Assembly: GCA_008632985.1 (NCBI GenBank)
Contig: QPGO01000109.1
Coordinates: forward strand, 62,001-126,000
Direction: 5' to 3'
Length of the DNA: 64,000 nucleotides
From: Psammoneis japonica
Taxonomy: Eukaryota
Positions 2,300 to 64,000 of this stretch are shown here, piece after piece. A program made the translations under genes and the position numbers. Each line of letters begins with the position of its first letter. Positions within the stretch are counted from its first letter, which is position 1. The notes beneath the pieces were generated by a model. The model had not been told where the DNA came from. It ran no database searches and worked only from the letters and a program-made list of their open reading frames with translations.

Positions 2300-3137
2300 C
2301 GCGACAGAAGTCTGTGTTGTTGTGTTTTTCCGTGGCGCGAAAAGAAGATGATTTCGGTCTCCGCATCATTTTGATTCTTGTGTCTGATTTTGGAGAGTTG
2401 TCTCAGCCTCCTCGTCTATAAATGATTGCGTCAGATTTTCCGAAAAAATGTTAATTAATTAGTCGGAAAGTCCTCGACTTTCCGAGGGCCCCCTATAAGT
2501 AGAAATCCCAAATGCTGAATTCTGATTGGCTCTCGTAGCGCCATTCCTAATCCTCGCAGCTAGAGTAGAAAGTGACATTTGCTGCCATCTTGGCATTTTG
2601 CTCTTCCACGACAATTTGCTGTCTTGTTGCATCTTCTCAATCAAATGCAACAAACAACTGAACCCCAACAATGCACCTTCTGACAAATGTGATGCCACAT
2701 GGCAAAAATGCAACAACAACTGCCGCTGCACCTGCAGTGCTCTGTTCACATTCACCGCAAACTTTTTTGACGCGCCTTGGTGGCAGTCTTCTCTGGACCA
2801 TCAACGCAAAAACTCTTCAGTCTGTGGGTGCACTTGAAAATCCCAGAAGATGCACCTGCCTTGCCGCTGTTGAAATGGAAAGTGTCATTGGTTTGCGCTG
2901 CTTTGGAAACAAACTTTTGGCATCTTCATCTTTTTCAGTTGGTGGCTGGGGCTCACCAGCTGATTCAATGGCTTGTTGAAAGTCATCGTCATCTGCTGCC
3001 ACAACATCTTTCTTGGTTCTCAGGATCAGCGCTGGAGTTGCATTCTGGTGAAGGTGCTCATGCATCAGCTCGATGGGGAAAGATCCTTCAAATGTTGGAT
3101 TGCACACATCTCACAAATGCATTTTTGACTTCTGAGT

Positions 3138-3382
3138 TGACAGGATTTGAGCAAGATTTTAGTTTGTCACACACAATTGTGTGCACTCTTAGTTCCGCAT
3201 GCGTCGCGCGATGTAGTTTGCTTTCGAGCCACAGAGCTCACAAGAATGACAACAGCAGCACCAACATCACGACACCAGTCTTTCGGCTCCTGCAACGGTC
3301 TCTGCACGGAGACTCATCTGCTGTTTAGACAGCAGCAAGGAGTCATTGTTTTCTTCCACCCAGTCATCTTCATTTTCTGTCA
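3138..3382 (+). repeat. 5' LTR of Copia element 1
   Basis: Direct repeat of 7668-7912 with TG...CA termini. Confidence 0.95.
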
Positions 3383-4171
3383 GATTGACAGTCTTGCTCT
3401 TTGTTGTCCATTGAGCGTTCATCATTGTTGGCGGTGGAAGTGTGTGCATCTACCTTCTTCACTGCTGGATGCTGGATTAAATCTGTGCATTTGGATTTAT
3501 CCGACACCTCCCATTGTTGGATGTGTTTGTTCAATGGATGTTTGTTTGGCCAGGAATTCCTGAAATCTCAGACATCCGAGATTCTGGATTCCTTGCAGCG
3601 GATCCTGCCAATGCATCCGCACGCGTTCACACGCACACAACATAAATCCCTGACTCTGGCTCTGCTCTGCACACACCAAGTCTGCTGCCACACATCTGCG
3701 CCAGATTGCTGGTCTTCTACAGCCCTGCAAGGTCCATGAGGAGGACAACTGTGAGAGGAAGCAATTCGTGATCACAGCCTGCGTTGGGGCGAGGGTGCAT
3801 TTCCTGTGTTTGTTCGTCCCTCCACAGCACCAAATTTGGCCGGCCTGATCAGGTCATCCAACTGACACAAAAATGAGAACGGTTCGGAGGTCTTGTCCAC
3901 CTCCAGCCAGCTTGTCAGCAGGGGTTTTTTACCCCATTGTTCCGCTCTCAAGCAACCCAAAGCGTCGCCAGCTGCGGGTTCGGACGTGCCGGCACAACTC
4001 TGCAGACCGGATGGGAAGCTTGGCACCCAACCACGAACGGGATGTCACAGCCCGGTGACTTCTGACTCTCAAGACAGTCCAAGACATCAAGCCAAGATTC
4101 AAGTGAAGTTTCAAGTCATTTCAAGCTCACCCTCCGACTCCAGCTGGTTCCGACACCCACCTGGTTGCAAC

Positions 4172-7100
4172 ATGGTTCTCACCAGGCAACAACAAATCAA
4201 TGGCCTCAAGCACATTCTAGGCACTGTTCTGAATCAAGCCGCAGACAGTCCATTGCACTCCGCTCTCAACATTGATGGAACCGTTTGCATCAGGACCTTT
4301 TCACTTTTACTCCGATGCAATTGGGCGCCCTTGTGTGCAACGACGGAACCAATCAAATGCCTTTGCCACGTGGCTACAAAGCACAGATGGCTGCATTGAT
4401 TAGCCTGCACACGGCAAAAGCACGCGGCAGCACGGATGTTGGCAATGACCCTCAATTGTTCACACAAGAGGAGTTCAACAACTGTTGTCTCAGTCCTGAG
4501 CATGTGGCATCCCTCTCCATGGGTGCAGCACCATCTGCTCCGACTCCTGGCTCATTGCCACCCAAACCACATGATCCCGTGCATGACTTTAAATGAGGCA
4601 TCAAATGTGGCCCACTTGCCTTCGCGCTTCTCAAGTCTGACAAACAGTGGCACACGTGGCACACCTCCATCATCGCACAGGCCCGCTCCCAAGACGTCAC
4701 ACGCACTCTTGACCCGACGCACAAGCCCTCCACAGCTGAGGACAAGGCCTTGTTTGCTGAACAACAGAAGCACATGTTCACCGCATTCGAACAGATCTTG
4801 CAGAATGACAAAGGCAAGGCTCTTGTTCGTCAACACGTCGGCTCCTCTGATGCTCAAGCGGTGTGTCGTGACCTTTCCAAGCATGCCCTTCTTGAAGACA
4901 ACATTTGCAACCGTGGTGCTCCGTCCAAGCTCATCAGTGATCATGCTCAGGTTGAGATCAGCAACAAGGTTCTCTGCATTTTCCATGCCCTCTTCATCTC
5001 TAGCTGGCAAAGCAAGCCCAATCAACAGCACCAGAATTTTGCTGAATGTTGCTGCCAAACTGTGAAGAACATGGCCAACACCATCATGGATTGCTTTGGA
5101 TCCCCAGCCTGCACCTGGCTCCTCACCATCATGTGCATCTGCTTTGTGCTCAACCACACATCTGCCAAGCTTCACTGGCACACTCCCACTGAAGTGCTGT
5201 CTGGCTCCACCCCTGACATCAGCCCCCTTCTCTGCTTTCAATGGTGGGAACCCATGTGCCACCACCTGGATGATTCCGGCTGGCCATCTGAATCCCGCGA
5301 GTCATGCGATTGCTTTGTCGGCATTGCCAAACACGTGGGTCATGAAATGACATTCAAAATTCTTTCTGCTGACACTCAGAAGATTCTTTGCCACTAAAAC
5401 GTGCATTCTGCCAAAAACCCATCCACTTCCAACTTGTGTCTTGACCCTCCTGATGGAAAATCTGCTGAACCCATCATCAAATCCCGACACGATTCCAAGG
5501 ATTCACCAGATGGGGAGGCAATCAGGATGTCCAAAATGCTGGTTTTTGACCCCGAGGACATCACTGGTCGCACCTTCCTCATGAAGCTGCAAGAGGACAG
5601 ACAACACAGCAGAGCCCGCATCATCAAGGCCATTGAAGACCATGACTGGGAAATTGGCAACAACCTGGAACTGGTCAAATTCATCTGCTCCATCAACAAC
5701 GATGAGTGCAAGGAAATCCTTGCCTGCAACAACATCATGCACCACATTGAGCAAGAAGATGAGGACTCCACTCTCTGGAAGTTCCGGCACATTGTTTCAC
5801 ATGAAGGACCATTGAGACCTCATGACCCCTCTTGGAAAGGCTCAAGCTGCAAAATCATGCTTCAATGGGAGAATGGGGAGATCACGTCCAAACCTCTTGC
5901 CATCATTGCCAAGGACATTCCCATCACCTGTGCCATCTGCACACGTGAACATGGTTTGCTTAAACCCAAAGGTTGGAAACACTTCTGAACTGCAGCCCCA
6001 ACCCAGAAGAAGCTGTTCTGCATGGCCAACCAAGCCAAGTTGCACTCCTTTTGCACCACGCCACGACACAAGTGCGGGTGTGAAGTGCCGCGGGACTGCA
6101 AGCATGCCATGGCCCTTGATGAGCGCAATGGCAACCACAAGTGGGGAGACACAACGGACCTCAAGATGACTCAGCTTGATGAGTGCGAGGTCTTCCACGA
6201 CTGCGGACACCACAAGGATTCCAGCGCCCCATCAGGACACAAGAAGATCCGGGCGCACCTTGTCTGCAACATCAAACATGACGGACGGCACAAGGCAAGG
6301 CTTGTTGCCGATGGACACCTCACAGACGTGCCCGTTGACAGCATCCATTCCGGAGAGTGTCTCTTCGTGGCCTGCAAATGATGATCTTCCTGGCCAAACT
6401 CAACGAACCAGAGACCTGGGCCACTGACATTTGCTGATTGCTTGCGTGCCGAAGGCTTCTTCCCATGCAAAGCCGAGCCCGACATCTGGCTGCGCAGGAA
6501 TGGTGACCACTGTGAACATGTGGCAGTGTGTGTGGATGACCTGGCCTTCACCATGAAGGACCCCCAGGCTTTTGCAGACACCCTCATGGAGAAATGCAAG
6601 TTCAAGCTCAAGGGCACTGGACCATTGGAGTTCCATCTTGGCTGCAACTTCACCCGTGACCCAGATGGCACTCTGTGTCTTGCTCCCCGCAAGCACATCA
6701 AGCACATGGTTGACAACTGCGCGCGCCTCTTTGGGGAGAAACCCCGCACTGATGTGCTTTCACCCCTTGACAAGGGTGACCACCCTGAGCTCGACACCTC
6801 CGAATTGCTCAAACCGGATGGCATCCACCAACTCCAATCCTTGATTGGATCCCTGCAATGGGCCGCATCTCTGGGTCACATTGACACTGCTGCGGCTGTC
6901 ATGTCCCTGTCTGGCTTCCGTGCAGTGCCCCGTCAAGGCCATCTAGACCGCGCCAAACGCATCTGTGGACAACTCTCCAAGATGCATCATGGCGCCCTCC
7001 GAGTGCACACCAAGGAGCCCGACTGTTCGGACCTCCCCAAGCCCGTGTGTGATTGGGCTCAATCCATGTGTGGGGAGGCAGAAGAGCTGCTCCCGCAAGA

Positions 7101-7680
7101 TGCGCCCGAGCCGCTTGGCAAGTTTGTCACCACCACGCACTGTGTTGATGCAAACTTGCTCCATTGCATGCTCGCTGGATGCTCTGTCACCGGCATCCTC
7201 CATTTCCTCAACAAGTTTCTGGCTGATTGGTTCTCTAAGAAACAAGCAACAGTCGAGACTGCTGCGCAAGGATCTGAGTTTGTTGCCACAAGGACATGTG
7301 TCGAGCAGATCATTGATCTGCTGCACATCACTTTGCGTCACCTTGGCATTCCCATTTGTGAAACATGCCACATGTTTGGGGACAACAAGTTGGCTGTGGA
7401 CAGCGCCACCATCCCGCACTCCAAGTTGCACAAGCGACACACTGCCCTCTCGTTCCATCATGTGCGTGAGGCGATTGCCTCTGGATTCCTTGAGTTTCAT
7501 TTTGTCGAAGGCTCCCGCAACCCGGCTGACATCCTCAGCAAGCATTGGGGTTGCTCCCAAGTCTGGAACCTCCTTCATCCTTCAATGTTTTGGAGCTTCG
7601 ACCCCGAGGCTTTCAACCAATCCAACTTTGAATCTGTCGCTGTTGACCCCTCAAGCAAACTGGGGAGTGACAGGATTTGA
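4172..7680 (+). pseudogene. gag-pol pseudogene (gag, partial integrase, partial RT, RNase H)
   Basis: MVLTRQQQ gag start; LISDHAQVE and PNQQHQNFAE integrase motifs; KHDGRHKARLVADGHLT; AVCVDDL (YVDD); HCVDANL, GSEF, MFGDN and NPADILSK RNase H motifs. Stops, frameshifts, and deletions of the protease and central RT. Confidence 0.9.
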
Positions 7681-7912
7681 ACAAGATTTTAGTTTGTCAC
7701 ACACAATTGTGTGTGCTCTTGGTTCTGTGCTCGTCGCACAATGCAGTTTGCTTTTGAGCCACAGAGCTCACAAGAATGACAACAGCAGCGCCAATGTCAC
7801 GACACCAGTCTTTCGGCTCCTGCAACGGTCTCTGCATGGAGACTCATCTGCTGTTTAGACAGCAGCAAGGAGTTGTTGTTTTCTTCCACCCAGTCATCTT
7901 CATTTTCTGTCA
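7668..7912 (+). repeat. 3' LTR of Copia element 1
   Basis: Direct repeat of 3138-3382, preceded by a polypurine tract. Confidence 0.95.
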
Positions 7913-10900
7913 TGGGTTGCTGTGGAAGAAAGGTGGGAGTGTGAGTTTGCCTTGTTCAGTGTTTTGAGGGAAAAATGAATGCTGCGCAGCAAGCCAGTTG
8001 GCAATGGCAACAATGCCATCATCCTCCAGCCTTTTTGCAGCATGCCCACAGCACTCGCTGCAAGTCACACTGCCATCAATCTCTTTTCCGCCTCCCCCCT
8101 TTGAGGTTGTCAAGTGCAGCCTGAAGCACTGCCATGATGCAAAGTGCACCATGCCAGATGGGTGCCTTTTCACACTCAGCATCTGGGCTCTTGTTGTCCT
8201 GGTCAGGCCACACCAACTTGTGGTCACATGGATGATTGACGACAGCAGACAAAATGTCAATGTGCCATCTTGCATGACTGTCTTTGCATCAACATGATCA
8301 GGGCAAACCAAGGTCAGTGCCAAAATGCTGGTGTGTGCTCATGTCAAATCCCAGCTGTCATGCTGTGTGCAGTTTGTCACCTCACAGAATCTGGCTCTTC
8401 AACTGACATCTCATCATCACTCATCTTTTTCTTCAAAAAAAAAATGTTGCTTCTTCTTTGCTCACTCTGCTTTGTCACTTTTGAGCATGCCTGGGTCATT
8501 GTCAGAAAATCCATGTGGCACTTCAGTGTGATCAAGTGCAGCTCTTCCAAATTTTGTCTTGGTGGCTCCATTTTGCAGCCACACTTCCACAGATTCATTG
8601 CCAGTTGATGGTTGACAGAAGTGCTGATGGGGGTTTCCAATGGTGACAAGAAGAAACATGTGTCGCCATCATTTTCTGCCCTTCTGGAGGCCACATGAGT
8701 GCTCTTTTTGTGCAAATGCACTTGACCAGTGACAATGTCGTTCTCCACCATCACATTTGAAACCCCGTTGATGCTGCCACACAGCTTCTTCAACTCTCTG
8801 CCACACAATTTGGGCTCCATCATTGACGATGTTGAATTTTCCTTCAATGCTCTGCCCACAGGTCCGCTGGCATCCATTGATTCTGAGCATGAGAATCAAG
8901 AAACAGGCGATGCATGTGTTTTGATGTGAACAATTTTTGGACATCAGACATGATGGGGTTTTGCAATTTGGCCCTCAGGTGGCTTTGCAGGTGGGTTGAA
9001 AAGGTGGGCACAGGTTGCAGTGCCAAAAGCCATTGACTTTCAAGAAGCTGTTGGCATCATCGTTGAGAGACTGGGCATCATGTGACAATGTGTCATTTGT
9101 TTGTTCCAACAAATGGGTGGATTTGAGTTGGAGTTAAGTCATGGGACTGTGGAATCTCCTCTTGCACATGACAAAATTGGGCTGGTGAAGCCGCAGTGGT
9201 GTGGCACTTCCCAGCATTCAAGGGAGCATTTGCCACACAACTTGTTGTTGTCACAATCACACAAGAACTTGCATGTGTTGGTTGTGTGTTGCATGCTGGC
9301 CATGGGCTGATTGAGGGTCTTTCTCATTTTCTTTGCAACCTCACAGGACAACCACCAATGGCGATGTTGTGTGGTGATGCCACAATCCAACAGAGGGCAA
9401 CAATTGACTTTGTGCACTGTCGCAGCAATGGCTTCACCCCAAAGACATTGTTTGGACATGAAAATTTGGCGAGAGCAGCTTTTGGTCAGAGTCGCAAGTG
9501 GCTGCCAAATGAGGCCAAACAATTTAAAAGTGGAGACAATGACACCATGACATTGAATTGGCAGCAAAGCAACTGGCAACCTAAAGAGCACACATTGGGA
9601 ATCCCTCTGCGCCACTTGAATTGTTTCCTGGATGAAAAAAGCCTCCGTTCCTGTCATGTTGGAAGGTGGAAGTCTCAAGCGATGAACAAAACTCGACACC
9701 GCTGCAACACTTCTTTTCTCTCAAGAATGCACCAAAAATGCCATCAAGGCCAGCGGTGCTGTCAAAATCAAACTGGCAAGTCCCCATTCCAATGAGGGAT
9801 TTTGCGCATTGTTTGGTGTTGCGTTCGACTGACTCTCACATGGCTGTTTGCAAAGATGCTGGGTTGGGCCATCCGATCTCTCATGCTCAATGCGCGCACA
9901 TGTTTTTCAATTCTTTGAGACTGGCCATTGCTTTGTGCTTGGCATTGTTGAGTCAATGCATGTCCATCTCCAGCTGTGCCACATTCAATGCTGTGTGTTG
10001 TTTGATGTGGCAGCAGCCACAGGCATGAATCATCTTGGAGCAGCATGAACATGATGCAGCCCCCCCCTTTTTTTCTGCAATGTTTTTGTCTGTGACAGCA
10101 TGGGTGGCAGTGTGTTCTCATTGTGTCCAAAAATGCATCATGAGAATCAATCACAACAGCCAGTGGTGCTTGTTGACATTTTTTGGAGGACTTGCCCTGA
10201 CAGCTGCGGGCTCACTTTACAGTTGGGTCATGCTGCAACAAACGGCATGCCCATGGTCACGTTCAGTTCTGCGTGCATGCCTCAACCCATGTGAGCAGAG
10301 AACATGTCATGGATGTGGGACAAGACAGTTTGACTGTTCAACAAAATTGTGCCGTCCAATCCACACAAAACAATCCTTGGTGATGAGAGCGCGGACTTGT
10401 CAGTGTTGCTGTGGGGGACATGCCTTCCTGCAGGACAGGGGTGGATCAGCCAGTGACTTTGCAATCCACCAAAGTCTGTGCCTTGTGGTGTTGTTGAGCA
10501 AAAACAAACAAAAAGAGGCCAAACTGAGAAAGGAGTGAACGCAGCATGCAGCATCTGAGGTGAGACAGGGCATGAGACCCTGCCAACAAGCATGTAAAAA
10601 GGCGAGCTTGGCAGCACCACATTCCCCTCCTCGGGCACAGCTGCCCTGGCTCAGGCTCACAGAAAGCAAAAAAATACTCTCCACCTAAATCCCGGGGCGA
10701 AAGACCCCTGCTCAACAATCTTCCAGCTCACGGCTTTATAAAAATGCGTAAGGTGCGGTGCAGCAGCATTTCCTTCGTTCTCCAGCAAGGCAGTTGTAGA
10801 TTTAAACTAGACGACAGTCTTACAGCTCTTTCTTGTTGGTCCTCAAATTCGCTACTGGTGTTCGTTCATGCCCCAGCAACTGGCCATTATTGTTTCGTTC

Positions 10901-12956: not shown

Positions 12957-13030
12957 CAGTAGCCAAAAATTGAAAACGAAGGATTTGTGAATAATTTGCT
13001 TATGTGCATCCTATATATTTTCCCCGAATA

Positions 13031-15135
13031 TTAAGATTCGGAAGTCGTTACGGTTGAGGCATCTTCTGCGACAGCGGCGGCGGTTGCTGCCAGCATGAGA
13101 ACGTGAACTGGTGACGCGTGTTCATCTTGTGTCGGAGCAGCAGCGGACAAGTTGGGACTCTTATGAGTCGCTTCTTCTTCAATATCACAAATGCTTGGTT
13201 TCTTCATTGGTGCGGTGTTAGTGGAATTTGGCGTGACAATTTGCGATGTCTTCGCCTCCATATCTTGTGTCGGCGTGGTAGGCGGAGCCTCGTCGGTATT
13301 CCCCTTGCCCTCGGATGCTGCCTTCCTCTCGGCCTTCTTTTTGGCCAAACTGAGCTCAGTCGCTCGCTGATATAAATCTTCAACACTCTTGTTGTGAGCC
13401 AACCCGCGAAGCATTTCCCAGTACCCGAGGTCAGGTTCTTCGGCAGACACTGACCCATTTGCAGTTGGCTTTTCCTTCCCCACAATGGCTTTCAGAATAA
13501 TCTCATCCTCCTGAGGCGTAAACGAAGTAGCTGTCTTGGGCAAACTTTTGCCCGGGTTGCTGTCAAGAGATGATTCGTCTTCAGAACACGAGGCGGTTAA
13601 GGTAGAAGCAGCTGTGGTGATCGAACCTCCGTCAGTAGCAGACTGTTGCTTCTTCTCTTCAGTCTTTGCTTCTTTCGTGAGACGCTTGTGCTTTCCAGGC
13701 ACCCGAGTGTACTTCCCACGAATTCCCTCCCATGCAAACCCGATTGCGTCCAATCTAGACTTTCGCTCTGCACTCAACGTGTGCTTTCGTCTGCGTTGAT
13801 TCTGGACCCAGCCGACGAGCTTTCTGTCCTCTGGTATAGCCAAGGTACTTGGCAATGGCCATGCTTTTCCTTGTACTTGAGCAAGCGCCCAAACATCTCG
13901 TCCCATTGATTCTGGTGCGATACACCAGTGGCTACCCAAACAAAGCCGATATCCTCTAACCGCTTTCGCCGATCCTCGGATAAGTCATGACGGTATTCAC
14001 GCTGCTTGCTCACCCATCGTCCCAACTGAATGTCTTCCTTGTACTGCCAATGCACAAGGCAGTCGCCATTCTTCTTCTTGTATTCGACGAGGCGTTCATA
14101 CATAATATTCCATTGCTCGTCACGTGTTCGACGGCAACGCTTCTTTTTGTTACTCTTTCCATCGTCGCTTGACGCTGATCGCTTCTTTTTGGACGATGCT
14201 TGATGTTCTTGAGTCTGCATAGGATCTTGATACCATAGAGAATTTCGAAGCGTAGTAGGCTCGTTGAATCTGTTAAAACGTGAGTATAGGTTCATGTTAG
14301 GGAAAGCAATGGGCTCAATACTCTGACTTTGCTTCGATGGAGTCATAGGCGATGACATATCGTCTAGCTTGCCGCCGTACAGCCCCTTCATTTCGGAGAT
14401 TGACATGTGGTCAAGTGAAGGACGTTGGTGTGTAGCCGATACTGCGGCAGCAAGTCCACCGTGTGTCTGAATAGAAGGACGAGGGCTCGAAAGGGACTGG
14501 TTACGCAAATATCCCATCAAACTGCTCATATCCGAAATAGTGGACGTCGATTCCTGCTGTTGAGATGCTGTGGCCTCCGCCAGCGAACCTGAAGCGAGTC
14601 CGCCAATGGACTGTCTGTGCTCTTGAGCTTGAGTGGCCTGACGGAGCTTGGCGAGAAGAAACGGTATTGAATTCTTTTCGTTAGCCTGCTCTTGCGAAGA
14701 TCCGGATATCTCAGATGCAACGGACGACATTCCGAGTGGCATAGAATGGCGACGATTCGGCATGGGTTTGAGGTCGCCTTCGGAGAAGTTATCTTTCAGC
14801 GGGGACATCATCAATGACGGAGATGGCGCAAGCCTCTGGGGTGATTGCATGTTTGAAAGCATGTGCATGTTCATGGCTGGGAATGATGGTGTCCTATTTG
14901 TCCTCTGATGTGTGTCCTCGACTCCTGTTGTACTCTGGCGGCGGTTCGCAGTTGGCATCATGGGGAGACTAGCACCGCCTTCGTTGGTAGTCAGAGCACG
15001 AAGAATATCCAACCGCGTTTGACGAAAATTTAATGCCGATGATGACGAGAGTAGTTCAGAGTAGGCCCTTGCCATTGCGTTTGCCGGATCCTCAGCTTTC
15101 TCCTCATCACGGGATGTTTCCCTGCCCGATGACAT
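13031..15135 (-). CDS. Helicase-associated (HA) repeat domain protein, with apparent 1-nt frameshift at ~13832
   Basis: Two HA domains (WNIMYERLVEYKKKNGDCLV...LGRWVSKQR...LEDIGFVW; WDEMFGRLLKYKEKHGHCQVP|PEDRKLVGWVQNQR...LDAIGFAW). The second is split between ORFs 13774..15165 and 13031..13939. Possible Myb-like segment C-terminally. Confidence 0.85.
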
Positions 15136-20358: not shown

Positions 20359-20624
20359 TGAGAAAAAACGCGAATTGTTTTTTCGATTGCGTGAGACTGG
20401 TGATATGACCTTTGGAATTGAAGAACCTGCAGATGCAATGAACGACATGATGAAAATCAAAAAGAACACCGCGATGGTGCTCTGACATTATTCTTTTACT
20501 GCTTTCACACCTGGTTTGAAAGCATTTTATGGCGGGAAATGTGATGGCTACGGCCTACGGCGGCATCAGTAGAAATTGTACGGAGTTTTTTTGTGGCCGT
20601 CGTCGACGATGCGCGCCGCGCAGG

Positions 20625-20688
20625 GGCCACAGAAACCCGGATCTGATAGTTTGTGAGGCCACAGAAACCCGGATATGATAGTTTGTGA
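20625..20688. repeat. Two tandem 32-bp direct repeats upstream of metX
   Basis: ggccacagaaacccggat(c/a)tgatagtttgtga x2, one mismatch. Confidence 0.9.
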
Positions 20689-20819
20689 GAGGAAAAGCAG
20701 GCGTCCGAGCTTCCCAACCTGTCACCCATTCTATTATTTGTAGAGATATTCTATCTATCTCACAGCCCTGCCTCCTGCTTGTTTGTGGTAGTTGATTTCA
20801 TCGAATGCAGGTAAAACAT

Positions 20820-45043: not shown

Positions 45044-45319
45044 CAATGACAGTGGCCCGATCACACCGACTTGCACATCTTTCGGCTCCTGCAAAGGTCT
45101 CTGAGCGGAGACTCGCCTGCCATTTAGACAGCAGTGAGGAGTTGTTGTTTGAATTCTTGCCATTTGCCTTCAATTTCTGTCATCAATCGTTGGCAACAAA
45201 TGAGACAAAATCATCATTTGGTTGGTGGTTGTGCACCCTGAACACAAACGTTGCATCAACTGCAGCGCCATGTGATGAATTTAACTTTCGGTGAGGACTG
45301 CACTTGTCAATTGATGTTT

Positions 45320-52532: not shown

Positions 52533-52614
52533 AGATGCGAGTGAGAGGTTGCGGCACACATCGTCGGATGGCATGTAGATGCGAGTGAGAGGTTACGGTA
52601 CACATCGTCGGATG
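52533..52614. repeat. 38-bp direct repeat x2
   Basis: agatgcgagtgagaggtt(g/a)cgg(c/t)acacatcgtcggatg at 52533-52570 and 52577-52614. Confidence 0.9.
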
Positions 52615-54153
52615 CAAACCTTGCAGCATCAATCTTGATCGTTTCTCTTGTCTGTGGCATCCTGTCCAATCGTTGTCCGTTTCATTCCGGCTGTGATGGT
52701 TCGGGGGTTCCTGACTTGCATGATTTGTCCTGAATTTCACCGTGCTTCACCGTGGTGAAAACATCAAGCCACAAGTCTGTGACGGAGGTGGTCCGTCTGC
52801 CAACTCTTGTTCATTTCATGTTTGTTGTGTGCCAAAGGTCACACACACACCAAATGTTTGTGGACGGACCACTGCGTTTTGGAGGAACATTGAGATTGCC
52901 GTCATTGTCGTGCTTCGATCACTGATGGAAAGATAGAAAGAACGGGGTCTCGCCTGCAAGTGACTTGGGTGATCAAGTCCGTGCACAAACAGGAGAGAAT
53001 GGCTGTGCGTGCCAATCTAGGAACAGCACCTTGCGACAATGCTTTGTCTGGACATTGTGAGAGACTCTGAGCCAGTCTCAGAGTCGATGTGATTGTTGAA
53101 ATCGGATGGATTCCGACAGGTTGTGCAACAACACGGATCGGAGCCAGGATCAATTTCAATCAAAAACGGAGTGGAAGATGTGTCATCTTCAGTCATGAGG
53201 TTCTGACAGAAAAAGGGAACATGGAATCCCTGTCACCCCCCTTGAACCGAATGAGGGAAGACAGAAATGACTCATGACAACATGTGAGCAGGAAGGCGCC
53301 ACAGTGCACGGTCGACCATGACCCAAATTTTCTCTGCACATTGAGTTTTCGTGAGACAGTCTGCCAATTGGCTTTCGGCAGGGACCCAGACAAGCAGGTG
53401 ATGACCCAATCGTTGACCCTCACGGACACGTTGGAAACGTTGCTCAATGTGTCTCGTGCGTCAAGTCTGTTGGTCATTCTGTGCCATCTGGACTGCAGCC
53501 TGATTGTCCAACATGATGATGGTGGGGGTGGTGGTGAGACACTGGGAATCGACGACAGAGCAGTGGCGGGTGCCAAGGCAGGTGAAGTCACAGGCCAACA
53601 TGCGGAGACGAGCAATGGCCACTGCACCAGTGCAGGCACCCATCCATTCAGATTCTGCAGAGGACATTGCTGCGGGGGTCGGGACAGTGGAATTGGCCTC
53701 CACTGTTGCCCCATTGAAGTGGGCCATAAATCCGACAGTTGATTTTGCAGTGTCCGGACAGTCTTGCCAGCTGGCATTGGCGAATGCCACAAATTCGGAA
53801 TGACTGACATTGTGGGCCTCGCAAATTGCGTGAGCAGGACTCGCGGTGGGATCAGAATGGAACTTGATGGCAAGGTCTTGATGTTTTTGAAGACAACCAA
53901 AATGATGGATGAGAGCATCAAAATCTTTCATGCCAGGGTTGGCGCAAGCCTTGGCGAGTTTGCAAGTGATCCACAAAATGTCAGCACGTGTGTTGCAGGC
54001 AAGACAGAGGATGGAACAGACAGCGGAATGGAAATGGAGTCCAGGACACTTGGTGGCAATGGTGTCAGAATTGGCTTGGTCTTTTGGCTGGTTTGTCTCA
54101 GAGCAAACACAGTCAACTGGAGCTGGAGTGTCCTGAAAGCTGGGGCTGCCCCA

Positions 54154-54555
54154 GACGCGTTCCAGCTCCAGGTGGGACCTCTCACTGCTGCACTGTGACA
54201 TCAACAGTTTTTTGGATCGCGTCGCATGTTGCACACGTGCATTTCTGCGTGTCACATTCTACGAAATTGTTTCACACTCGTCCCTGTTTTGCAAAGCCAA
54301 AGGCTTTCTATTTTCAACATTTGTGAGAATGAAAATGCGCTGGGCATGTTCTTCAATGTCTGAAGAACACACCCGGGCAAACTGTTGATGATGTGCTGCA
54401 AGTGTGGAGGAGGAGATGCATTCACAAAATTGCCTCTTTTTCTGTTGGTGATCATTTGTATTTTCATTTCAGCATGAATTTACTGCAGAGCTCGCACACA
54501 GAATTCTGCAGGCCCAATGTCACACACGGAGTCCCACCTGGGACTGGAACTCATC
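54154..54555 (+). mobile_element. MITE copy 4 (402 bp), inserted in RT
   Basis: TIRs gacgcgttccag/ctggaactcatc, TSD CCCA. Confidence 0.9.
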
Positions 54556-57531
54556 CCCAAGGGGAGTCTGGTGTCAGGAATTGCTTGAGGAGATTGCAAA
54601 CGTGTTTGTGTTGATCCAGTGAGAAAGATCCGTCTTTGCAGTGGTGAGTGCGCATTTGCATGAACCAGGTGACACCATCGGTGAATGTGACATTGTGCTT
54701 GGACTGGATGAGTTGCTCAAAATCCTTTTCAACTCGATCGTTCGATCCGAAGTGTGTGACATCTTTGGCGCAGAAAATTGGCTTGAGATGTGATCCGTCA
54801 GGGAAGTGTTTGGCAAAGAAGGTGGGAACTGCCTTCAAATTGGTGCATCCTTGGGCGACAAGGAATTTGGAGAGTTTGGTTGACCACCAAAGGCCACTCC
54901 GGATGGTTCCACACATGCCCTTTTTGAGTCTGAGAGGTGTGCCAAAATGTTCCGCATGTTCCGGGAAGCATTGCTTCAAAATGGGATCAAAACGGACAAA
55001 GAGGCGACTGTGAGCTGGAGCTTGGAGGCAAGCACCAACAAAGTCACCATTTTTGGCATGTCTTTTGGCCTGTGCAGCAAAGGCCAAGAACAGTTTGATG
55101 GCACAGGATGAGGCATTGGGGGACCAGTTGTTGTTGTCATCACCTTGAGTTTCTCGAGGGAACCATTGGGCTTCTGTTTGGTGCAGAGAGCCAGTGCAGT
55201 CCCAACAACTTTGTCATCGGGATGTGGGCATTCATCAAGAGCACAGGTCTCATTGTCTGCAATGAGATTTTTGAGCTCAGAGCGGATGGCACAAAGCCAA
55301 GCATCGCGAATCGCAGGCGGCAGTCTGAGGATGGCTCAAAAAGTGTGAGGAGTGGGCAAGCAGTCATCAGTGGGAAGGTTGGTGGTTGCTTGGACAGCTT
55401 CCAAAGCCTGTTTCAAGGGATCAGGACATTGACACCAATTGTTGCAGTCAAGCCAAAAGGGGAAGTGACTGATGCACTGCAGGCTTCCTCCATTGTGATG
55501 GAGTCATCGAACAGGGTTTGTTCGAGCAAATCAACAAGGTGCGCATGCCAACATTGGAGCAAGAGGAACGTCGTAAGCCAGTGGGGGCAGGTTCAGGTGG
55601 AAGTGAATCAGAGTCGGAGTCATCATCATCGGGTGTAGTGTTGACAAGATCAGGGGGAGAGGTGGATGAGTTGACATCAAGGAAATCGTGGATGGCACCT
55701 GTGTGTTCTTCTGCTGGTGTCTCGTCACACTCAGCGAGGCTGGATGTGTCATTTGACATGTTCCAGATGGGAAGAGCACCTGAGAATGGAGTGTGGTTGT
55801 GCACAAAGGAGGATTCAAAGAGTTCATCAAAAACAATGTCATGTGCAACAATCAGATTCTTTGTCCCAATGCCCTCGGGTGCACAGATGAGGCGTCAAGG
55901 TTGGTGAGGTGCAAAGCCAATGTGGACACCACAAGAGCGATGTTGGATTTGTTGTGGAGTGGTGAAAGAGCAGCCAGTGTCCGGGTTGTACGGTTGGAAT
56001 CTGTCGAAGATCACTGGGCAGCCAAAAACGTGGAAGTGGCCAATTTTAGGTTGCTTGTTGAAAGCATGGAAGTGTGGCGTGGCAAGGGATCCGTCGGGGA
56101 GTCATGTGCCTTTGGCTGAGAGAGCATTCAGGATCGCAACAGCATGGACAAATGCGCGATGGCAGAAACAGGCCGAAAGGCATGCACCCACAAGAAGGCA
56201 GCGCATCACATTGCTGACGACTTGCCACATGCATTCCGAAATTCCATTTTGCTCCTGGTGGCATGGGGCGGCTGTCTCAACCTTGATGCCATGGGCATCA
56301 CCAAAAGCAATGAATTCAGAGGACAGAAAATGTTGTCCATAATCAGCTCTGATGCAGTTGATGTCTTGTGCCTGTCTGGTGGCCTGAACCTTGGCCATCC
56401 ATGATTTGATGGCTGCAATGATGTTGCCAGAGGAGGGGCTCACAATGCCGCGAACGCCACAGCAGTGTCCCTTGTGGGTGGCCAAGAAGAGGTGATGCAG
56501 AAAAGATGTTTTTGGTGTGAGAGCCATGGAGTGAGGGTTGGGAATTACATCCACAAACACACGTGAAAAAGTGTGTTCCAGTTCAGTTGGGTTGCGCTCA
56601 GTGCGGTTTCTTTTTCTGGGTGTCGTGATGCGCGTGTTGTCCAGACAGTCATCAGTCCCAGGGGCAGTGTGGCAGCCACACCAGACTTTGCCAACAGTGC
56701 CAGCCAAAAGACTCTGGGAAGAACGACCACCGAATCATTGACCGGCAAGGTCAAGGTCAATGGCGGTGGTCTTGCGCAGTGCGAGCATGGGTTCGGGAGA
56801 CACTGGGGACAAGGAGCGTTTGTGACAAAGAACAGGGAAGCTGAAAGTGTGTCCATTGCCAAAATCGAGTGTCATGATGTTTGGCGTGATTCTCACATGA
56901 AAAAGTTTGTTTGCTGTGAAGGATGGTTCCGAGAACAGATTCTGATTGAGGCCAGGGACATGACAAATGTGGTTGAGTGCAAGGTTGACAGGATGCCCTT
57001 GGTCATCAAGAAATTGCAAAGTGACGGAGCCAACATTCGTGGCGTGAACAGTGGTGCCATCAGCAATCACAACAGGGACATGACAATCAACAGGGTTGTC
57101 GAGTGTGTCATGTCGGACAAAGTGAGAGGATGCACCAGAGTTGACAAACCAACTGCGAATGTCAGTGAGATCAAGGTTGCGTGGGAGTTGCTGAGGTCAG
57201 CAGTGATCGGGATCATCTGCCACAAGGGCAACCACTCAGCGGGCGCATCGTCGGTGACCGCATTGGATGGCAGGAACGAATTGCACACAAGTGCATCAGT
57301 GCTGAGTGCGGAGATGGTTGATGAGTCATCATCATCCAAGACTGTTGAATGCAGTGCTTCAGAAGGTGCATGAGTGCATGCATCGTGCAAGTCCAATGGA
57401 AACGGGGGTGCCGAGGTGACGTGCGCATCGATCGGGTGGATGTCTTGCGAGGGCAAAGGAAGGACCAGCGTTTCGGGCATCAGAAAGTCCTGTGCAGTGT
57501 CCTCAGCAGGGGCATGTGCAAGAGGTGAGAT

Positions 57532-57922
57532 GACATGTTCCAGGTCCAGGTGGGACCTCACACTGCTGAACTGTGACATCAATGGTTTTTTGAATCGTGT
57601 CGCATGTCGCGCACGCAGATTTCTGCGTGATTTTTGCGACATTTTGTGTCATTTTACGGCACACTTGTTGAGCAATCCATCCAACAACTTTTGACATTTT
57701 TTGTTACAGCGTGATTCTACAATGTCTTAAAAAATTGTGCAGGGCAGGTGCATTTGCAAAAACGTCGAGTGGTGTGAGGCACAATTGTGCCACAAACTTG
57801 GCCGTTTATTTGATGTTGAAGATGAACACATCCATTGATTAAATTCTTGCACTGCAGAGCTCGCACGCAGAATTCTGTGGGCCCAATGTCACACGGAGTC
57901 CCGCCTGGGGCTGGAACGCATC
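57532..57922 (+). mobile_element. MITE copy 5 (391 bp)
   Basis: TIRs gacatgttccag/ctggaacgcatc, TSD agat/aaat. Confidence 0.9.
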
Positions 57923-60900
57923 AAATGGGGTGTGGTGGCAAACAACACAAGACAGGCATGAGGGTGGACGAGTCCATGCTGGAGTCACACTCATGGTGTT
58001 CCAGAGGGGGCGGGCCAGTGGAATCAGAAATGCTGGATGAGGCATCCTCGTCGACATCGCACTCTGTGTCCAAGTCCCAGAGTTGGCATGGATCCATGGG
58101 GTTGAGAGTGACACGCAGCAATCAATCGTGGGACAGAATCGAAAGATGATTTGTGGGATGAGTTGTCAGAGTGTGAAGAGGGGCATGACATGAGCGGCGG
58201 CAGAGAATCCGTGGATGATGAGCCAATGGAGTGGACGTCCACAAGAGCAGTGCAAGTGGCACAAAAAATGATCTCGGTGTCGTTGGGTTTGGCAGCGTCG
58301 TGGCAGGTCTGGGGTGGCGCGTCGGCAGCAGTGGCGGCAAGTGCACTTTGATGCTCATTTTTTGGGAGTTCCGGGCATTGAGGTTGAAGGTGTCCCTTCT
58401 TCTTGCAGTGACAGCAAGTGACCTCACTGAGATTGTGAGGAGGTTTTGAGGAGGAGTTGGGTTTGACAGTGCCGTTCTTGACGTCCCGAAGGCGGGAACG
58501 ACATTCGGCAGCCTTGTGACTCCGTTCGCCATAGCAGCCACAGATTTGGGGTGGACTGTTGTTGCGTGGGCAGTGTTGCTGTCTGGATTGATCATTCCGT
58601 GGGCCGTTTCTGGTGGTGGCAAGGTGAGCATGGTCATGGTTGGAATGTGAGCGATTGCCGCCAGACAGACGGTCACGGTGTTGTTGGTTGTGGTGCATTG
58701 ACGTCATAGAAAGTTTGCCTGACATCTTTAAAAAGGGGAACAACAGAGGATGAGAGGCGAGCGGCAGCACAAAATTCGGACTCGAATTGCTTGATCATTG
58801 CATCGTGTCGTGCATGGCCACCCATTTGACTGAGAAAGTGAAGGCTGATGTCAGAGTCAGTTTTGACGGGCAGGCCGGCATTTTCATGGTGGCAAAGTTT
58901 GCATTTGAAACACTTGATGAAGCTGCTGGCAGATTCATCAGAGTTGCGGAAGATTTGGAGATGGTCTTTTGTGCAGCAGTTGCTGTGTTCCTGGGTGACA
59001 GGAGCACAGCGCAATTGCAGTTCCTCAAGTGCCAATGTGCCAGATCAGGAACCAATGCCCAACACATCGGATTGATGAGTTTCGTTCACGTGTGTCCACA
59101 GGAGAGCGCACAGGGCTTTGTCGGCTGAGTTGGGGAGAGGACAGAGAGGGATGGAAGGGAAATCATCAAGCACTCTGCTGAAATCGGGAAATGAAGCAAA
59201 TGTGCCACGTAAGTCGTTCAAAAATGTGCAAAATTTTTGTCGTCTCGTGCATGGGTTCTGATTGTGCTCCAGTGTTCCGAGTTTTGCATGGGAGGCATGT
59301 CTCATCAGAGAGTTGGCTGAAGATTCTGAAGATTGCTCTTTTGCACCTGTGGTGCAATTGAGAGGCTCGGATGTGAAAGTCTTGTTGTCGGATGAAGAAC
59401 ATGTGGAACGTGGAGATGCCGGATCCTTCCGCAGTGTCAGAGCCAGGTGGAAGAGTGGCTCCAGGTGGAGGGACTCAGCCTCACACATCATGTCCTTGAA
59501 ATGGGAAAGGGCAAGTGTGCTGCACTCGCAAGCCGGGTGGCAGTGGAGGAGGCTCTCAAAAGATGATTTTGCGGCATCAATGGTTTCACGAAGCAGGTCG
59601 GACCGTTCATTTTCACACAGAAAAAAGGGTGCAAGGGCCTGTTGGATTTCAAAAAGAGCATCAACAGTCACGAGGCGGACCTGCACATTGATGTCGCTGT
59701 CAACAGAAACATTGGGTGAGGCAGCAGTGGGTGAGTCGGATGCAGGACAGGTGTCAGCATGGTGTGGTCGAGGCGGAGAAGCCAGAACTTCGGCGAGTGC
59801 ATTGTCCATGTCAGTCAACATGGGAGTGACCATGTCAAAAAGAGGATTTGCAGAGGTTGAAGAAGGATCAACATGTGGCAGGGCAGGAGCAGTGGTGTCC
59901 GGATCCTTTGGTGAAAGTGGGGGAAATTCCTTGGGAGATCCCAATGATGCAGCAGTTGTGGGAGCTGGTTTGTCCACAGGCAAAGTGGGGCCCCCCTTTA
60001 GCCTGATCATTGTTGTCATCCAAGTGAACTGTTTCAACCTCAACGGCAGTGCAGATGCAGTGAGGGGATGACTGAGACGATGCAGAGGGATGGCCACTGT
60101 CTTGGTGTGTCCGTGGACGGTCACTGAAGTGACAATCAACTTCAGGATTGTTGAATGGCTTGGTGCGGGACATCTGATGCTGGTTGCAGCAGGAAAGCAA
60201 AGTGCAGCGTTCTTGGTTGGGTGTCATGTTGAGGGATCGCCTGGATCTGGAATTGCAGCGACGTTTGCGGGGTCATCAACCAGAAATGTGAGTGGTTCAA
60301 TCGTGGTTGGCTGGCTCAGAAGGTTTCCGGATGCGGTTGTGCAAAGTGTCCAGATCAACATCAAGGACATCCAATGACTCGTTGATGGATGTCATTTGGT
60401 TGCGGATTGCACGGTCACAGACATTGTGCTCGGGGTCACAAAAATTGGTTTCGCCAAGGTCGGCCTCTTCCAAAAGATGGTCAATGCAAGCACCGGAGTG
60501 CTGCATGACGTGACAGTTTGATTGGATCTCATCAGTCTCAAGCTGAAGACGATCCACGCGAGATCAAGCTTGGGCAAGGCACTCCAACGGGGCACTGCGA
60601 ACATCAGCCTTGACACAAGTGAGGTGAAGTTCCTTGGGTGTGGGCGGGGCAGGAGCCGGAGAACGCTTGACCGAAGCAATGGAATGCTTGAGGGCACATT
60701 GGGTGCGACAACAAGCAGTCTTGGTGTGCTCGCGGGATGGCTGCAAAGAGAGAGCAGGTGTCCCTGGCAAAGTCAATGGTTTGCCATTGCACAGACCATG
60801 GACAGACAAGCAAGTGCGGCACTCGAAATCCACTTTGTTGTCAGAAGCGGTGGCGGTGCAAGTGGGCGCCTTGTTGTGTCTGGGAGCCTGCTTGGAGGAC

Positions 60901-61879
60901 TGGTTGGATGGCTTGGAAGGCTTTGCAGACATGTGCTTGATGCTGTGGATTGGAGTGTGGTGCACACCCTGGGTCACGTGTCGGGTGCAACGACGACGTG
61001 CGGGGTGCATGCTGGCATGCTGGACAACAGAGCCAACATCAACATGGTGACAAAGGCCACGAGGGGCAGTCGCAGGGATGTCAGCATTCAAGCATCCATG
61101 GACATGAAAAACCTCCTGAGAAAGGAGTGCGTGTGGTGACAGCTTGCAAGAGGAAGCATGGCGAGATGCACAACCAGCGCTTGGCTTGGAAAAAGTGGTC
61201 TCGTTGGACCAAACTGGAAGTGTTGCAACCATGATGGAAAGACAGAAAGAGCGGGGTCTCGCCTGCAAGTGACTTGGGTGATCACGTCCATGCACAAACA
61301 GGAGAGAACAGCTGCACATGCCAACATGGGAACAGCACCTTGCAACAACACTTTGTCCAGATGTTGTGAGAGACTCTGAGCCAGTCTCAGACTTGATGTG
61401 ATTGTTGAAATCAGATGGATTCTAACAGGTCAATGACACGGAATGGAGCCAAGATCAATTTCAATCAAAAACAGAGTGGAAGACATGCCATCTTCAGTCA
61501 TGAGGTTCTGACAGAAAAAGGGAATGTGGAATCCCTGTCAATCACGGTGCCTTTTTGTTCCCATTTTTGTGTGTGACAAAAGAATTTTTTTGACTCCCTC
61601 TGACACGCGCTCGCTAAAAAAACCAAAAAACGACTCCGGATGGCATCCAGTCATTGATTGCAAGCAACCGGACAATCATCATGATGGTTTGACCAGTCAG
61701 AAATGCCACACCAGTCCCTGAGATTGTGTCACTTGAAGGTCTTGCAAAGATTTGAAGAGACACTCGAGAAATCCACCAGGATTTGTTGTGCTTGGATGTC
61801 ACAAAAACACTGCACTTTTCTGCGCAATTCATTCTTTGTCGCATCTCCATCTTCCTCCCTTGCGGTCACACACATCCAT

Positions 61880-63133
61880 TCTGGTGATTCAGCGTTGCAC
61901 GTGGCATTGCATGGCTGGAGCAGGCTGCAAGCAGATGAGACATTGTGTGGTGAAAAAACAAAATGGCCAACAACATGTCGATTGCACTGCTGCAGCCCAG
62001 TGCGGACTTGCTGTCTCAATGACAATGGTGGAATGTGTGAACATCGGAAGGCACATGGTGTTGAGAAGAAGATTGAAGTTCAGAGGGTCTGTCAATCGCT
62101 GCAACACAGGCAGGCTGAATCTAACAGAAGTCGCTCGGGTTTGCAGGGTTGACCACAAATTTGCAGTCAAAGTGGAGCGAGAACTTGACTGTTGCGGCCA
62201 AGTGCTTCACCCGAAAAAGATTCACCAGAAACAATTGCATGGTCCAGGCATCAACAAAATTGACAGTCTAGATGCTTTTGTCCTTCTGCTGATTCCATGT
62301 CTGGACAAGCCAAGTTGCTCGCTGTCCAACTGTCAGGAGAAAATCTGCACAACCTCACAGGAGCAGTGGCTTCAAACACTGCCATCAGTGGATTCTGGAA
62401 TCATGCATTTCCAATCAGCGGGAAACTTTGCAAGCCAAATCTCATTCCCTGTGACAAATTCAAGCCTGAAAACATCCTTCAAGTGTGTGAGTTCACAATG
62501 GTTGTTGCCAAGGTTGATCTGTGGAGGGTCAAATGCAGAGATGAGAAGCTGCTGAAAGGTTCAGAAGTGCATTGCCGAAGGACAAGGCGAAATGTGCCAA
62601 TGGGGGAAGTCCCGCCATCCTTCACATCCTCTGATTTTCGCAGCACACACCCCATCATTGGCTTTTGCGGTGTCGACACAAGGACCCACCCAGTGCATTG
62701 CCGGATCCATGATGAGCTGAATGATGCAGGACAGTTTGCAATGGAGATTGAGCACGCAGTGTGTTGGGGCCTTCTCAGAGGCGGTGACATCCTTGTTCCA
62801 GATGATGCAGCCTGCCATGTGCATGGTGAAAATGCAGTTCTTGAAGAATGGCTGTGGATGGAGCATGGCATCTTTGTTTTGTTTCTTCCAATGAAGACCC
62901 CTGGATGGAACCCTGCAGAACTTGTGTGGCATCAACTTGTGACACAGCTCAAGCACCATCCAATCTGCAGGCTCCGCTCACACACCGAGCACTCCACCAC
63001 CTGTGCTGCCCATGACGTGTTGTCCCAAATCATGCATGACCAAGTCTTCCACATGCACAGAGCATGTGGACATGCATCTCAAGCTTGTTCCATGATAGAA
63101 TGCTCCACCATGGAATGCCCTGCAACAGACTGA
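61880..63133 (+). pseudogene. IS630/Tc1-mariner superfamily DDE transposase remnant
   Basis: VKCRDEK, ILVPDDAACH (DNAxYH-like), FLPMKTPGWNPAELVW (LPxxSPxxNPIExxW). N-terminal HTH-like part lies in a different frame; Tyr-free. Start approximate. Confidence 0.75.
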
Positions 63134-64000
63134 GATGCAATTGAAACTTCCAGGCCCTGGGCACATGACACAGAGTCATTCTGTGCCAGGAAACACTTTC
63201 GTTTTCCCACAAAAAATGTCTCTAAAAATTGACACTGCTTTGCCGTTGCGAGATTGGATCCATTCAATTCAAATTGTTGATCCAAAAAATGCTGCAGTTA
63301 GACTTTCACCCTGGCGAGAGCCACAAAATGCACAAAATGTGAGCATTGTTGGTTTTCCATCCTTTAAAACAATGTCTTGCAAGAACAGAACAGGCATGCA
63401 TTGTTCATGGTGCCAGGTGTTTGAACACGAAACTGGCTTTACATGCGGAGCACCTTTGTCGCACGAGAAAGCACAAGGGGTGGTGCAATTTTTAGTGACA
63501 GCTCTGCAACTGATGGAGTTGGGCCCAGATTGAGACACCTGAACAGTGCAATGGTGACAAGATGCAAACACAGTCACCAGCACAGACAGTCTTCATTGAT
63601 TTCAAAAGCATCAAGTGGATTCACACAGGAGTTTCAACGTCTGCAGAAATTTGCATTCAAACATCCATGCCTTTGCATCCAACAGAAACATTGTTGGAAG
63701 CAACATCCTTGTAGACTTGCATGCTTTCAGACTCATTGGACAATGAGAAGGATGGTGCAGTCAATGCCGGACGATTCTTTGGAGGACCAGGGAAGGAACA
63801 TGACCCCATGCGATTTTGAAAAGAATTCTCCTTGCCGTCAGGATGGGTGTTCTCCTTCTCCTGCATGCCATTTTCATCAGAATGCACGGGCTCTTCATCA
63901 TGTCCTCCATCATGTCCATGGGAGCTGCGATGATCATGGGAGGAGGAGCTGGGAGGTTGGTGTTGGTTGCAGTGGCAATTGTCTTTGCAGCCACTGGAAG

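Follow-up and report, generated by a model that had tools for sequence, protein, structure and literature searches.

Transposon-bearing tracts of the diatom Psammoneis japonica stripped of TpA: probable TpA-directed hypermutation of DNA

The DNA analyzed here comprises 64,000 nucleotides of the diatom Psammoneis japonica (GenBank assembly GCA_008632985.1, contig QPGO01000109.1, positions 62,001 to 126,000 of the forward strand) and is termed the window throughout, with positions counted from its first letter. Host genes carrying HA, NUDIX, PrsW, BioY and alpha/beta-hydrolase domains (Pfam) lie in the window between five tracts that are almost devoid of the dinucleotide 5'-TA-3' (TpA). The tracts hold a Copia-type long terminal repeat (LTR) retrotransposon, a probable second LTR element, the DDE_3 transposase frame of a DNA transposon, several copies of an element resembling a miniature inverted-repeat transposable element (MITE), a second short repeat and a tandem array (Table 1). 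In all likelihood a true hypermutation of DNA directed at TpA made these tracts, in line with an earlier reading of the same letters (hereafter the original prediction), which had described a strand-symmetric change of TpA to TpG or CpA restricted to repeats.

With the limits of the tracts set from the TA positions themselves and the expected counts taken from base composition, the five tracts (38,398 bp in total) contain 155 TA where 2,369 are expected, a ratio of observed to expected counts (O/E) of 0.065 or 4.0 per kb, while the four stretches between them (22,097 bp) contain 942 where 1,532 are expected (O/E 0.615; 42.6 per kb). TpA is thus about 9-fold lower in the tracts than in the neighbouring DNA, and at the O/E found between them the tracts would hold about 1,457 TA. 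In 1-kb windows the TpA O/E ranges over 0.00-0.18 in the tracts and 0.52-0.71 in the intervening DNA, and the longest run without TA measures 1,424 bp. The dinucleotides TG (O/E 1.65; 4,070 counts) and CA (O/E 1.72; 3,983 counts) are enriched in the tracts almost symmetrically, and the G+C share is 0.503 against 0.473 between them. CpG has an overall O/E of 0.505 in the tracts and ranges over 0.05-0.96 in 1-kb windows whose TpA O/E is at most 0.18.

The borders are abrupt, falling within about 100-200 bp: TA is spaced at 20-40 bp up to positions 2566, 22217, 35433 and 52599, and 140-590 bp without TA follow. The last and next TA across the edges stand at 2566 and 3160, 22217 and 22357, 25521 and 25634, 35433 and 35619, and 52599 and 52934. 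These limits agree within about 100 bp with those of the TpA-poor tracts in the original prediction, all of which proved depleted; the first 2,566 bp, which had been left outside its range, are TpA-poor as well (O/E 0.29) and may represent an element caught partly mutated. The term "repeat-restricted" stands as regards restriction to tracts, given their sharp edges and the O/E of 0.615 between them, but not as regards restriction to repeats, for only some tracts carry a recognisable transposon protein. The nearby host genes are of ordinary composition, and tyrosine (Tyr) makes up 2.2-4.4% of their frames against none of the transposon frames.

Table 1. Positions and composition of the TpA-poor tracts and of the elements recognised in the window (aa, amino acids)
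Feature	Position	Strand	TA observed/expected	TpA O/E	CpG O/E	Details
Intermediate stretch	1-2566			0.29		788-aa open frame 2-2365 (-), Tyr 1.0%, Cys+His 9.0%; no Pfam family
Tract 1	2567-10594		26/494	0.053	0.42	
Tract 2	22218-25520		7/201	0.035	0.38	No Pfam family; ~100-nt direct repeats 23206-23307 and 25493-25597
Tract 3	27447-29349		10/136	0.073	0.29	No Pfam family
Tract 4	35434-49196		77/839	0.092	0.60	Mosaic of short repeats, solo-LTR-like pieces and tandem array
Tract 5	52600-64000		35/699	0.050	0.52	Reaches the window end
Copia-type LTR retrotransposon	3138-7912	+				LTRs 3138-3382 and 7668-7912 (245 nt, 92% identical)
Second LTR element, probable	52923-61540	-				Direct repeats 52923-53235 and 61232-61540 (88-90% identical); nested MITE copies
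DDE_3 transposase frame, DNA transposon	62264-63130	+				289 aa, no Tyr; 0/3 conserved Tyr columns kept
MITE-like element	37789-38188	+				~390 bp, ~25-nt terminal inverted repeats
Further MITE copy	38673-39052	+				
Further MITE copy	40595-40985	-				
Further MITE copy	57537-57923	-				
Further MITE copy	54154-54555					
Second short repeat	39200-39645	+				~450 bp; copies differ mostly by TG/CA flips
Second short repeat, copy	44596-45046	-				
Second short repeat, copy	46134-46576	+				
Tandem array	42235-43520	+				42-bp units, ~30 copies

The direction of the change can be deciphered from protein columns that are conserved elsewhere. Scoring covered the gag, middle and reverse transcriptase (RT)/RNase H parts of the Copia element together with the DDE_3 frame, at columns whose residue is shared by at least 80% of the Copia homologues (up to 120) or by at least 75% of the 9 DDE_3 homologues. 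For the RT/RNase H frame 6385-7677, 1,399 homologues were found among longer proteins, and the 120 used are 53-67% identical to it, many of them polyproteins of about 1,900 aa from ENA and JGI assemblies. None of the 29 conserved Tyr columns of the Copia element and the DDE_3 frame keeps Tyr, most now reading Cys or His, and most of the conserved residues other than Tyr are kept in the scored columns. Within the Copia element the replacements are Cys (15 columns), His (6), Gln (2), Leu (1) and Phe (1). The 431-aa frame 6385-7677 (stop to stop) is free of Tyr. Its motifs VCVDD, HCVDA, LRHLG and HWGC correspond to VYVDD, HYVDA, LRYLG and HWGY in the consensus of seven homologues, which bears out the Tyr-free RT/RNase H frame and the motif changes of the original prediction.

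The single-base replacement changes inferred at these columns comprise 30 from TpA to TpG or CpA, 45 from CpG to TpG or CpA, 10 other A:T to G:C transitions, 3 other G:C to A:T transitions and 18 transversions; 30 further columns were excluded from this spectrum as ambiguous or as requiring at least two changes. The polarised spectrum that had been proposed as a check thus shows an excess of TpA over other A:T to G:C transitions (30 against 10), and, together with the complete loss of the conserved Tyr, it confirms a direction from TA to TG or CA.

A native origin of this composition, in which the families would simply be TpA-poor or GC-biased conversion or selection would have removed TpA, finds some footing in the under-representation of TpA in most genomes and in the O/E of 0.615 even between the tracts. 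It is nevertheless hardly credible in view of the relatives of the Copia element. As a control, retention of Tyr was counted over 14 conserved columns: 109 of the 120 homologues retain at least 13 and none fewer than 8, against 0 of 13 in the window. A metagenome scan for related Copia RT, conducted with an 8-row alignment, gave 375 confirmed stretches, and all of the best 80 of these have a TpA O/E of 0.33-1.07, so that natively TpA-free relatives, which would have offered an ordinary explanation, are lacking among them. Furthermore, the Copia frames of the window are broken or deleted and the Tyr of the catalytic motif is replaced (YVDD to CVDD), and GC-biased conversion would not stay confined to TpA.

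A similar signature is present in some of the database proteins. In P0265, P0147, P0167, P0255 and P0258 every conserved Tyr within the part covered is replaced, by Cys or His, while one is left in each of P0159 and P0212; several such proteins read VCVDD or VHVDD at the catalytic motif. Two further Copia relatives, P0143 and P0205, retain 3 of the conserved Tyr, with Cys or His in place of 5-7 more, and look like half-converted copies.

Decay of methylated CpG is evidently at work in the same tracts, with CpG to TpG or CpA as the commonest inferred change and conserved Arg often replaced by His or Cys in the same frames. The loss of TpA is distinct from it, as the original prediction had maintained, and the two are uncoupled across windows as well as across related elements. 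The windows at 38-41 and 44-46 kb combine a CpG O/E of 0.63-0.96 with a TpA O/E of 0.05-0.18, whereas metagenome relatives with a CpG O/E of 0.10-0.25 have a TpA O/E of 0.50-0.73. Decay of 5-methylcytosine alone was therefore rejected as an explanation, for it fails to account for the 9-fold drop of TpA, for CpG-rich windows free of TpA and for CpG-poor relatives that keep it. Several metagenome loci (L044, L062, L047, L002 and others) have a CpG O/E of 0.10-0.16 with ordinary TpA (0.50-0.73), which indicates that decay by CpG methylation without loss of TpA occurs in other hosts.

If each TA were resolved independently, copies of one family should differ by TG against CA at one and the same dinucleotide, and this prediction was tested copy by copy. 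In four copies of the MITE, TG and CA share a column 27 times, and the seven other classes of double transition occur 1-5 times each; in three copies of the second short repeat there are 19 such TG/CA flip columns against 0-3 for the other classes. The alignment of copies thus gave the dominance of TG/CA flips that the hypothesis calls for. Two LTR pairs show 4 and 8 flips, along with single differences of the kinds TA/TG, TA/CA, CG/TG and CG/CA. Across the 31 units of the tandem array one dinucleotide column reads CA in 13, TG in 11 and TA in 7, and a neighbouring CpG column reads CG in 17, TG in 8 and CA in 6. Flips at the same dinucleotide between copies imply independent changes on both DNA strands. 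Both products also occur within one element, as had been claimed, with 15 Tyr to Cys and 6 Tyr to His replacements on the sense strand of the Copia element. Over the Copia and DDE_3 frames together, Tyr to Cys (15) and Tyr to His (8) do not differ significantly and the raw counts of TG and CA are equal; a strand bias linked to transcription was considered and is not claimed.

An experimental precedent exists in the chlorarachniophyte alga Bigelowiella natans, as described in a preprint dated 14 April 2026 (Mettrop et al., bioRxiv 10.64898/2026.01.13.699255). In mutation-accumulation lines of this alga, two integrated viral regions mutate at about 1,000 times the genome rate, in some lines only, and 230 of the 231 new mutations in the viral inserts, which derive from a nucleocytoplasmic large DNA virus (NCLDV) and a virophage, are A to G or T to C, all on TpA according to the authors. 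The same preprint reports 324 TpA-poor coding sequences enriched for reverse-transcriptase and DDE endonuclease domains, and 124 clusters of windows poor in TpA and rich in CpA and TpG. Its authors propose an ADAT2-like adenine deaminase with a role in defence, without a test, and their main text does not mention diatoms. The original prediction, which knew of no described pathway for such a change, has been overtaken in this respect, since the preprint of 2026 reports the same TpA signature.

These data bear on the question whether the changes arose in RNA or complementary DNA (cDNA) before integration, either through ADAR-like conversion of A to inosine or through deamination of cDNA, fixed by reverse transcription. 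ADAR-type enzymes disfavour G before the edited A and often prefer U there (bioRxiv 10.64898/2026.01.13.699255, Discussion), a context preference that would suit such editing, and differences between LTRs taken by themselves are compatible with events at the cDNA stage. The same changes are, however, carried by the DDE_3 frame, by a MITE with terminal inverted repeats and by the units of a tandem array; TG and CA both appear on the Copia sense strand; whole tracts, including their non-coding parts, are equally depleted; and the B. natans changes arose in integrated DNA during culture. Editing before integration is consequently very improbable, and the two assertions of the original prediction, that DNA transposons and MITEs are affected along with retroelements and that the change does not occur by RNA editing during reverse transcription, hold good.

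The sequence around TpA reveals a preference of the process. Relative to the DNA between tracts, and on both strands, the density in the tracts falls to 0.021 for TAT, 0.072 for TAC, 0.142 for TAG and 0.180 for TAA (chi-square 112, p 4e-24). Every TpA is targeted, and a pyrimidine after the A, equivalent to a purine before the T on the other strand, speeds the change in the order T > C > G > A, on the assumption that the ancestral contexts of TA in the tracts resembled those found between them. ATAT accounts for 0 of the 155 surviving TA in the tracts against 73 of 939 outside, and TTAA for 31 of 155 against 45 of 939. In both short repeats, most copies or all of them retain their TTAA and GTAA sites.

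A number of points weigh against the reading of these tracts as products of TpA-directed hypermutation, the assumption on ancestral contexts being one of them. The 10 inferred A:T to G:C changes outside TpA make the specificity strong and not absolute. Of the 27 flip columns of the MITE, 4 still contain TA in some copy, 4 contain CG and 19 contain neither; flips may descend from CG as well as from TA, so they prove an independent resolution on two strands and not an origin from TA, which follows from the Tyr columns and from the depletion of TpA itself. Differences between LTRs could in principle arise on cDNA before integration, and a change in situ is argued instead from the MITE, tandem array and DNA transposon combined with the experiment on B. 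natans, not from the window alone. No protein family was found at 7.9-10.6, 22.2-25.5, 27.4-29.3, 35.4-37.8 and 45-49 kb, and a relaxed Pfam search (E up to 0.5) over 20 further tract frames gave only chance-level hits; the transposon nature of these parts is plausible. Lastly, sequencing run X1, with which the assembly was compared, may be the assembly's own data and is of unrecorded library type, so that it lends weak independent support.

That last point concerns the possibility of an artefact, in which modified bases in repeats would have been miscalled or polishing would have written TG or CA for TA; the uncertain provenance of run X1 leaves some room for it. Contigs built from this run (31-letter words, depth 31-33) agree base for base with 22162-23657 and 35720-37814, apart from one 1-letter gap in the second, and both stretches (1,496 and 2,094 bp) have a TpA O/E of about 0.01-0.03. 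This agreement excludes an error of consensus or polishing, but not every miscall specific to a chemistry. The Tyr to Cys or His pattern recurs, moreover, among proteins encoded by separate metagenome contigs (ENA and JGI), copies of a family differ in outcome at one site with some still reading TA, and the Illumina-based mutation-accumulation data show a real process in another alga (bioRxiv 10.64898/2026.01.13.699255). Taken together, these observations make an artefact very unlikely.

With regard to the elements themselves, searches with full-length homologues (tblastn) place the gag of the Copia element at about 4172-4890 and residues ~922-1921 of a ~1,900-aa polyprotein at 4807-7665, with residues ~250-920 missing. 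Its reading frames of 488 and 431 aa lack any Tyr. RVT_2 is found by Pfam at 6385-7677 (+) and 54554-55213 (-), and Pol_BBD at 56738-57196 (-) within the probable second LTR element. Two pieces at 39850-40112 and 44148-44591 share 70-84% identity with the Copia LTR; each is probably a solo LTR belonging to this family or to a related one. The MITE is judged to be very abundant because the summed word depth in run X1 reaches about 39,000-83,000 over 37343-40000, against about 80 over genes; its target-site duplications could not be resolved from four copies. In tract 3 the summed depth at 28.0-29.3 kb is 270-372 against about 80 over the neighbouring genes.

The erasure of the stop codons TAA and TAG leaves many false open frames in the tracts. 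Long open frames in several phases are common throughout them and are not to be read as genes. An 809-aa frame at 41276-43702, which spans the 42-bp tandem array, likewise stays open for want of TAA and TAG; Pfam assigns it to no family.

The host frames between the tracts are long and uninterrupted; the genes of B. natans are intron-rich. At 13031-15168 (-) two adjacent frames carry helicase-associated (HA) domains, and the nearest Atlas clusters of the HA and PrsW proteins are mostly Bacillariophyta. For a 617-aa host frame at 31847-33700 no homologues of near length were found. Among 24 variant positions outside the tracts in run X1 (spanning 20186-31377 and drawn from 40 of 423 rows), 8 pair TA with TG or CA (20243, 21360, 26239 and 30960 among them); these could reflect low-level off-target activity or differences between paralogous copies. 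No RNA data set is listed as containing the stretch 20001-30000.

As to the underlying process, A:T to G:C transitions at the A of TpA on either strand have turned nearly every 5'-TA-3' of the tracts to TG or CA. The process acts on DNA, most simply on the chromosomal copies, ends at the tract edges and has come close to saturation, and it overlies ordinary decay of methylated CpG, which yields the same TG and CA products. For the chemistry, deamination of adenine to hypoxanthine in the context T-A-Y (Y, pyrimidine) is our tentative choice, with a chance slightly short of even. A TadA/ADAT-like or other deaminase would produce hypoxanthine, which pairs with C, and the following round of replication would establish a G in its place. 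Pfam detected no deaminase domain among the frames of the window.

A lesion of the thymine would serve equally well as far as the letters go, because TpA is self-complementary and lesions of adenine and thymine are thereby inseparable by sequence. The T of TpA might be modified by a TET/JBP-type enzyme, for example to 5-hydroxymethyluracil or 5-formyluracil, and mispair with G to give T to C. All of the sequence evidence fits this alternative too, the context being readable as R-T-A (R, purine). 5-Formyluracil gives rise to T to C transitions, and in dinoflagellate DNA thymine is hydroxylated mainly at TpA. The one experimental report, that on B. natans, favours a deaminase in its main text, without testing it, and we regard a thymine lesion as rather unlikely.

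Error-prone repair synthesis of the DNA polymerase eta (Pol eta) type, recruited to silent chromatin and misincorporating opposite the T of WA (W, A or T), was considered as well; the original prediction had named Pol eta as a possible agent. Pol eta mutates A in WA with TA favoured, and the changes seen here are indeed A:T to G:C. They are, however, confined to TpA and do not extend to WA: 10 A:T to G:C changes lie outside TpA against 30 at it, though A/T sites outside TpA are far commoner, and the replacement changes, which were the class scored, show no excess outside TpA. The 18 transversions show no concentration at TpA, and the near-complete erasure (O/E 0.065) would need very many rounds of patch synthesis. 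Such a mechanism is accordingly improbable.

Returning to a base lesion at TpA, most simply the deamination of adenine, the choice of tracts would more likely be made through silent chromatin or a small-RNA guide than through repetition as such. A chromatin or small-RNA mark that ends at the border of an element would agree with the abrupt tract limits as well as with the CpG decay seen beside the loss of TpA. According to the main text of the preprint, a viral insert present in one copy was hit in B. natans, so repetition need not be the trigger, which argues against a pure homology sensor of the kind known from fungal repeat-induced point mutation (RIP). The expected consequences would be the loss of Tyr codons and of catalytic motifs such as YVDD and a rapid divergence of copies, and we infer that the process serves to disable mobile DNA.

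Considered more broadly, the occurrence of the signature in a diatom and in a rhizarian raises the possibility, doubtful as yet, that TpA-directed hypermutation is an ancient and widespread genome defence of the stramenopile, alveolate and rhizarian (SAR) lineage, present at least in rhizarians and stramenopiles and silencing transposons and viruses by erasure of TpA to saturation. The enzyme would then be a DNA adenine deaminase or a thymine modifier with a T-A-Y preference that is recruited to silent chromatin. Hardly any natural enzyme is known to convert A to G in chromosomal DNA; the adenine base editors of the laboratory were evolved from a tRNA enzyme. Were the SAR-wide reading true, diatoms would offer a tractable system for the first natural eukaryotic A to G editor of DNA, and the proteins with Tyr replaced by Cys or His in unrelated metagenome assemblies would be its footprint in nature. 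If the process does operate in a second, distant algal lineage, the B. natans finding is no single-species curiosity, and transposons, not viruses alone, are the long-term targets. In an ecologically dominant group it would also shape genome composition, repeat annotation and gene prediction, the last because the loss of TAA and TAG leaves frames that merely seem open. The TpA O/E combined with Tyr to Cys or His changes at conserved columns provides a simple screen for more hosts and eventually for the enzyme.

Among known systems, decay of methylated CpG shares the TG and CA products and is present in the same tracts (45 changes, Arg to His or Cys), but it cannot remove TpA. Fungal RIP is alike in being a transition hypermutation of duplicated or mobile DNA that destroys reading frames and is recognisable by its dinucleotide signature, while genes alongside are spared. 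It was rejected as an explanation, for its direction is opposite: RIP changes C:G to T:A mostly at CpA and raises TpA and A+T, whereas the process in the window changes A:T to G:C at TpA and raises G+C (0.503 against 0.473), as the original prediction had recognised. RIP furthermore depends on duplication and a sexual cycle. APOBEC3, acting on cDNA, and ADAR, acting on double-stranded RNA, resemble it as context-dependent deamination directed against mobile or viral nucleic acid, ADAR preferring U before the edited A according to the Discussion of the B. natans preprint. APOBEC changes C and not A, however, and ADAR acts on RNA; their marks are strand-asymmetric and limited to retroelements, while those in the window are symmetric and extend to DNA transposons and satellite-like DNA.

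The closest counterpart is B. natans. Both cases show A:T to G:C changes at TpA that give TpG or CpA depending on the strand, with both outcomes in one region; in both, foreign or mobile DNA is hit while the remainder, in the window the nearby host genes, has an ordinary composition; and both show a long-term loss of TpA with gain of CpA and TpG, the TpA-poor genes of B. natans being rich in reverse-transcriptase and DDE domains. The process in the window is hence of the same kind as the TpA-only hypermutation of B. natans and is not categorically new. They differ in the host, a rhizarian there and a stramenopile here, and in the targets, which are viral inserts there and LTR elements, a DNA transposon, MITEs and a tandem array here. 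The NCLDV insert has a Rho of 0.45, whereas the tracts, at an O/E of 0.065, are near saturation, and the genome-wide TpA share is 6.0% there against about 4% between the tracts of the window. The mutation rate was measured and an enzyme candidate proposed in B. natans; for changes arising in integrated DNA during cell divisions, as they do there, the differences between copies and between LTRs would lend indirect support in the window. CpG decay co-occurs in the window, and a preference for the base after the A can be measured in it, while the words "context" and "trinucleotide" occur 0 times in the main text of the preprint (its figures and supplements lying outside this count). A literature search that left subscription journals largely uncovered yielded one relevant paper, that on B. 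natans, and no such report for diatoms or other stramenopiles. The window appears to hold the first diatom example of this kind of hypermutation, one that affects transposons, has reached saturation and shows a context preference that can be measured.

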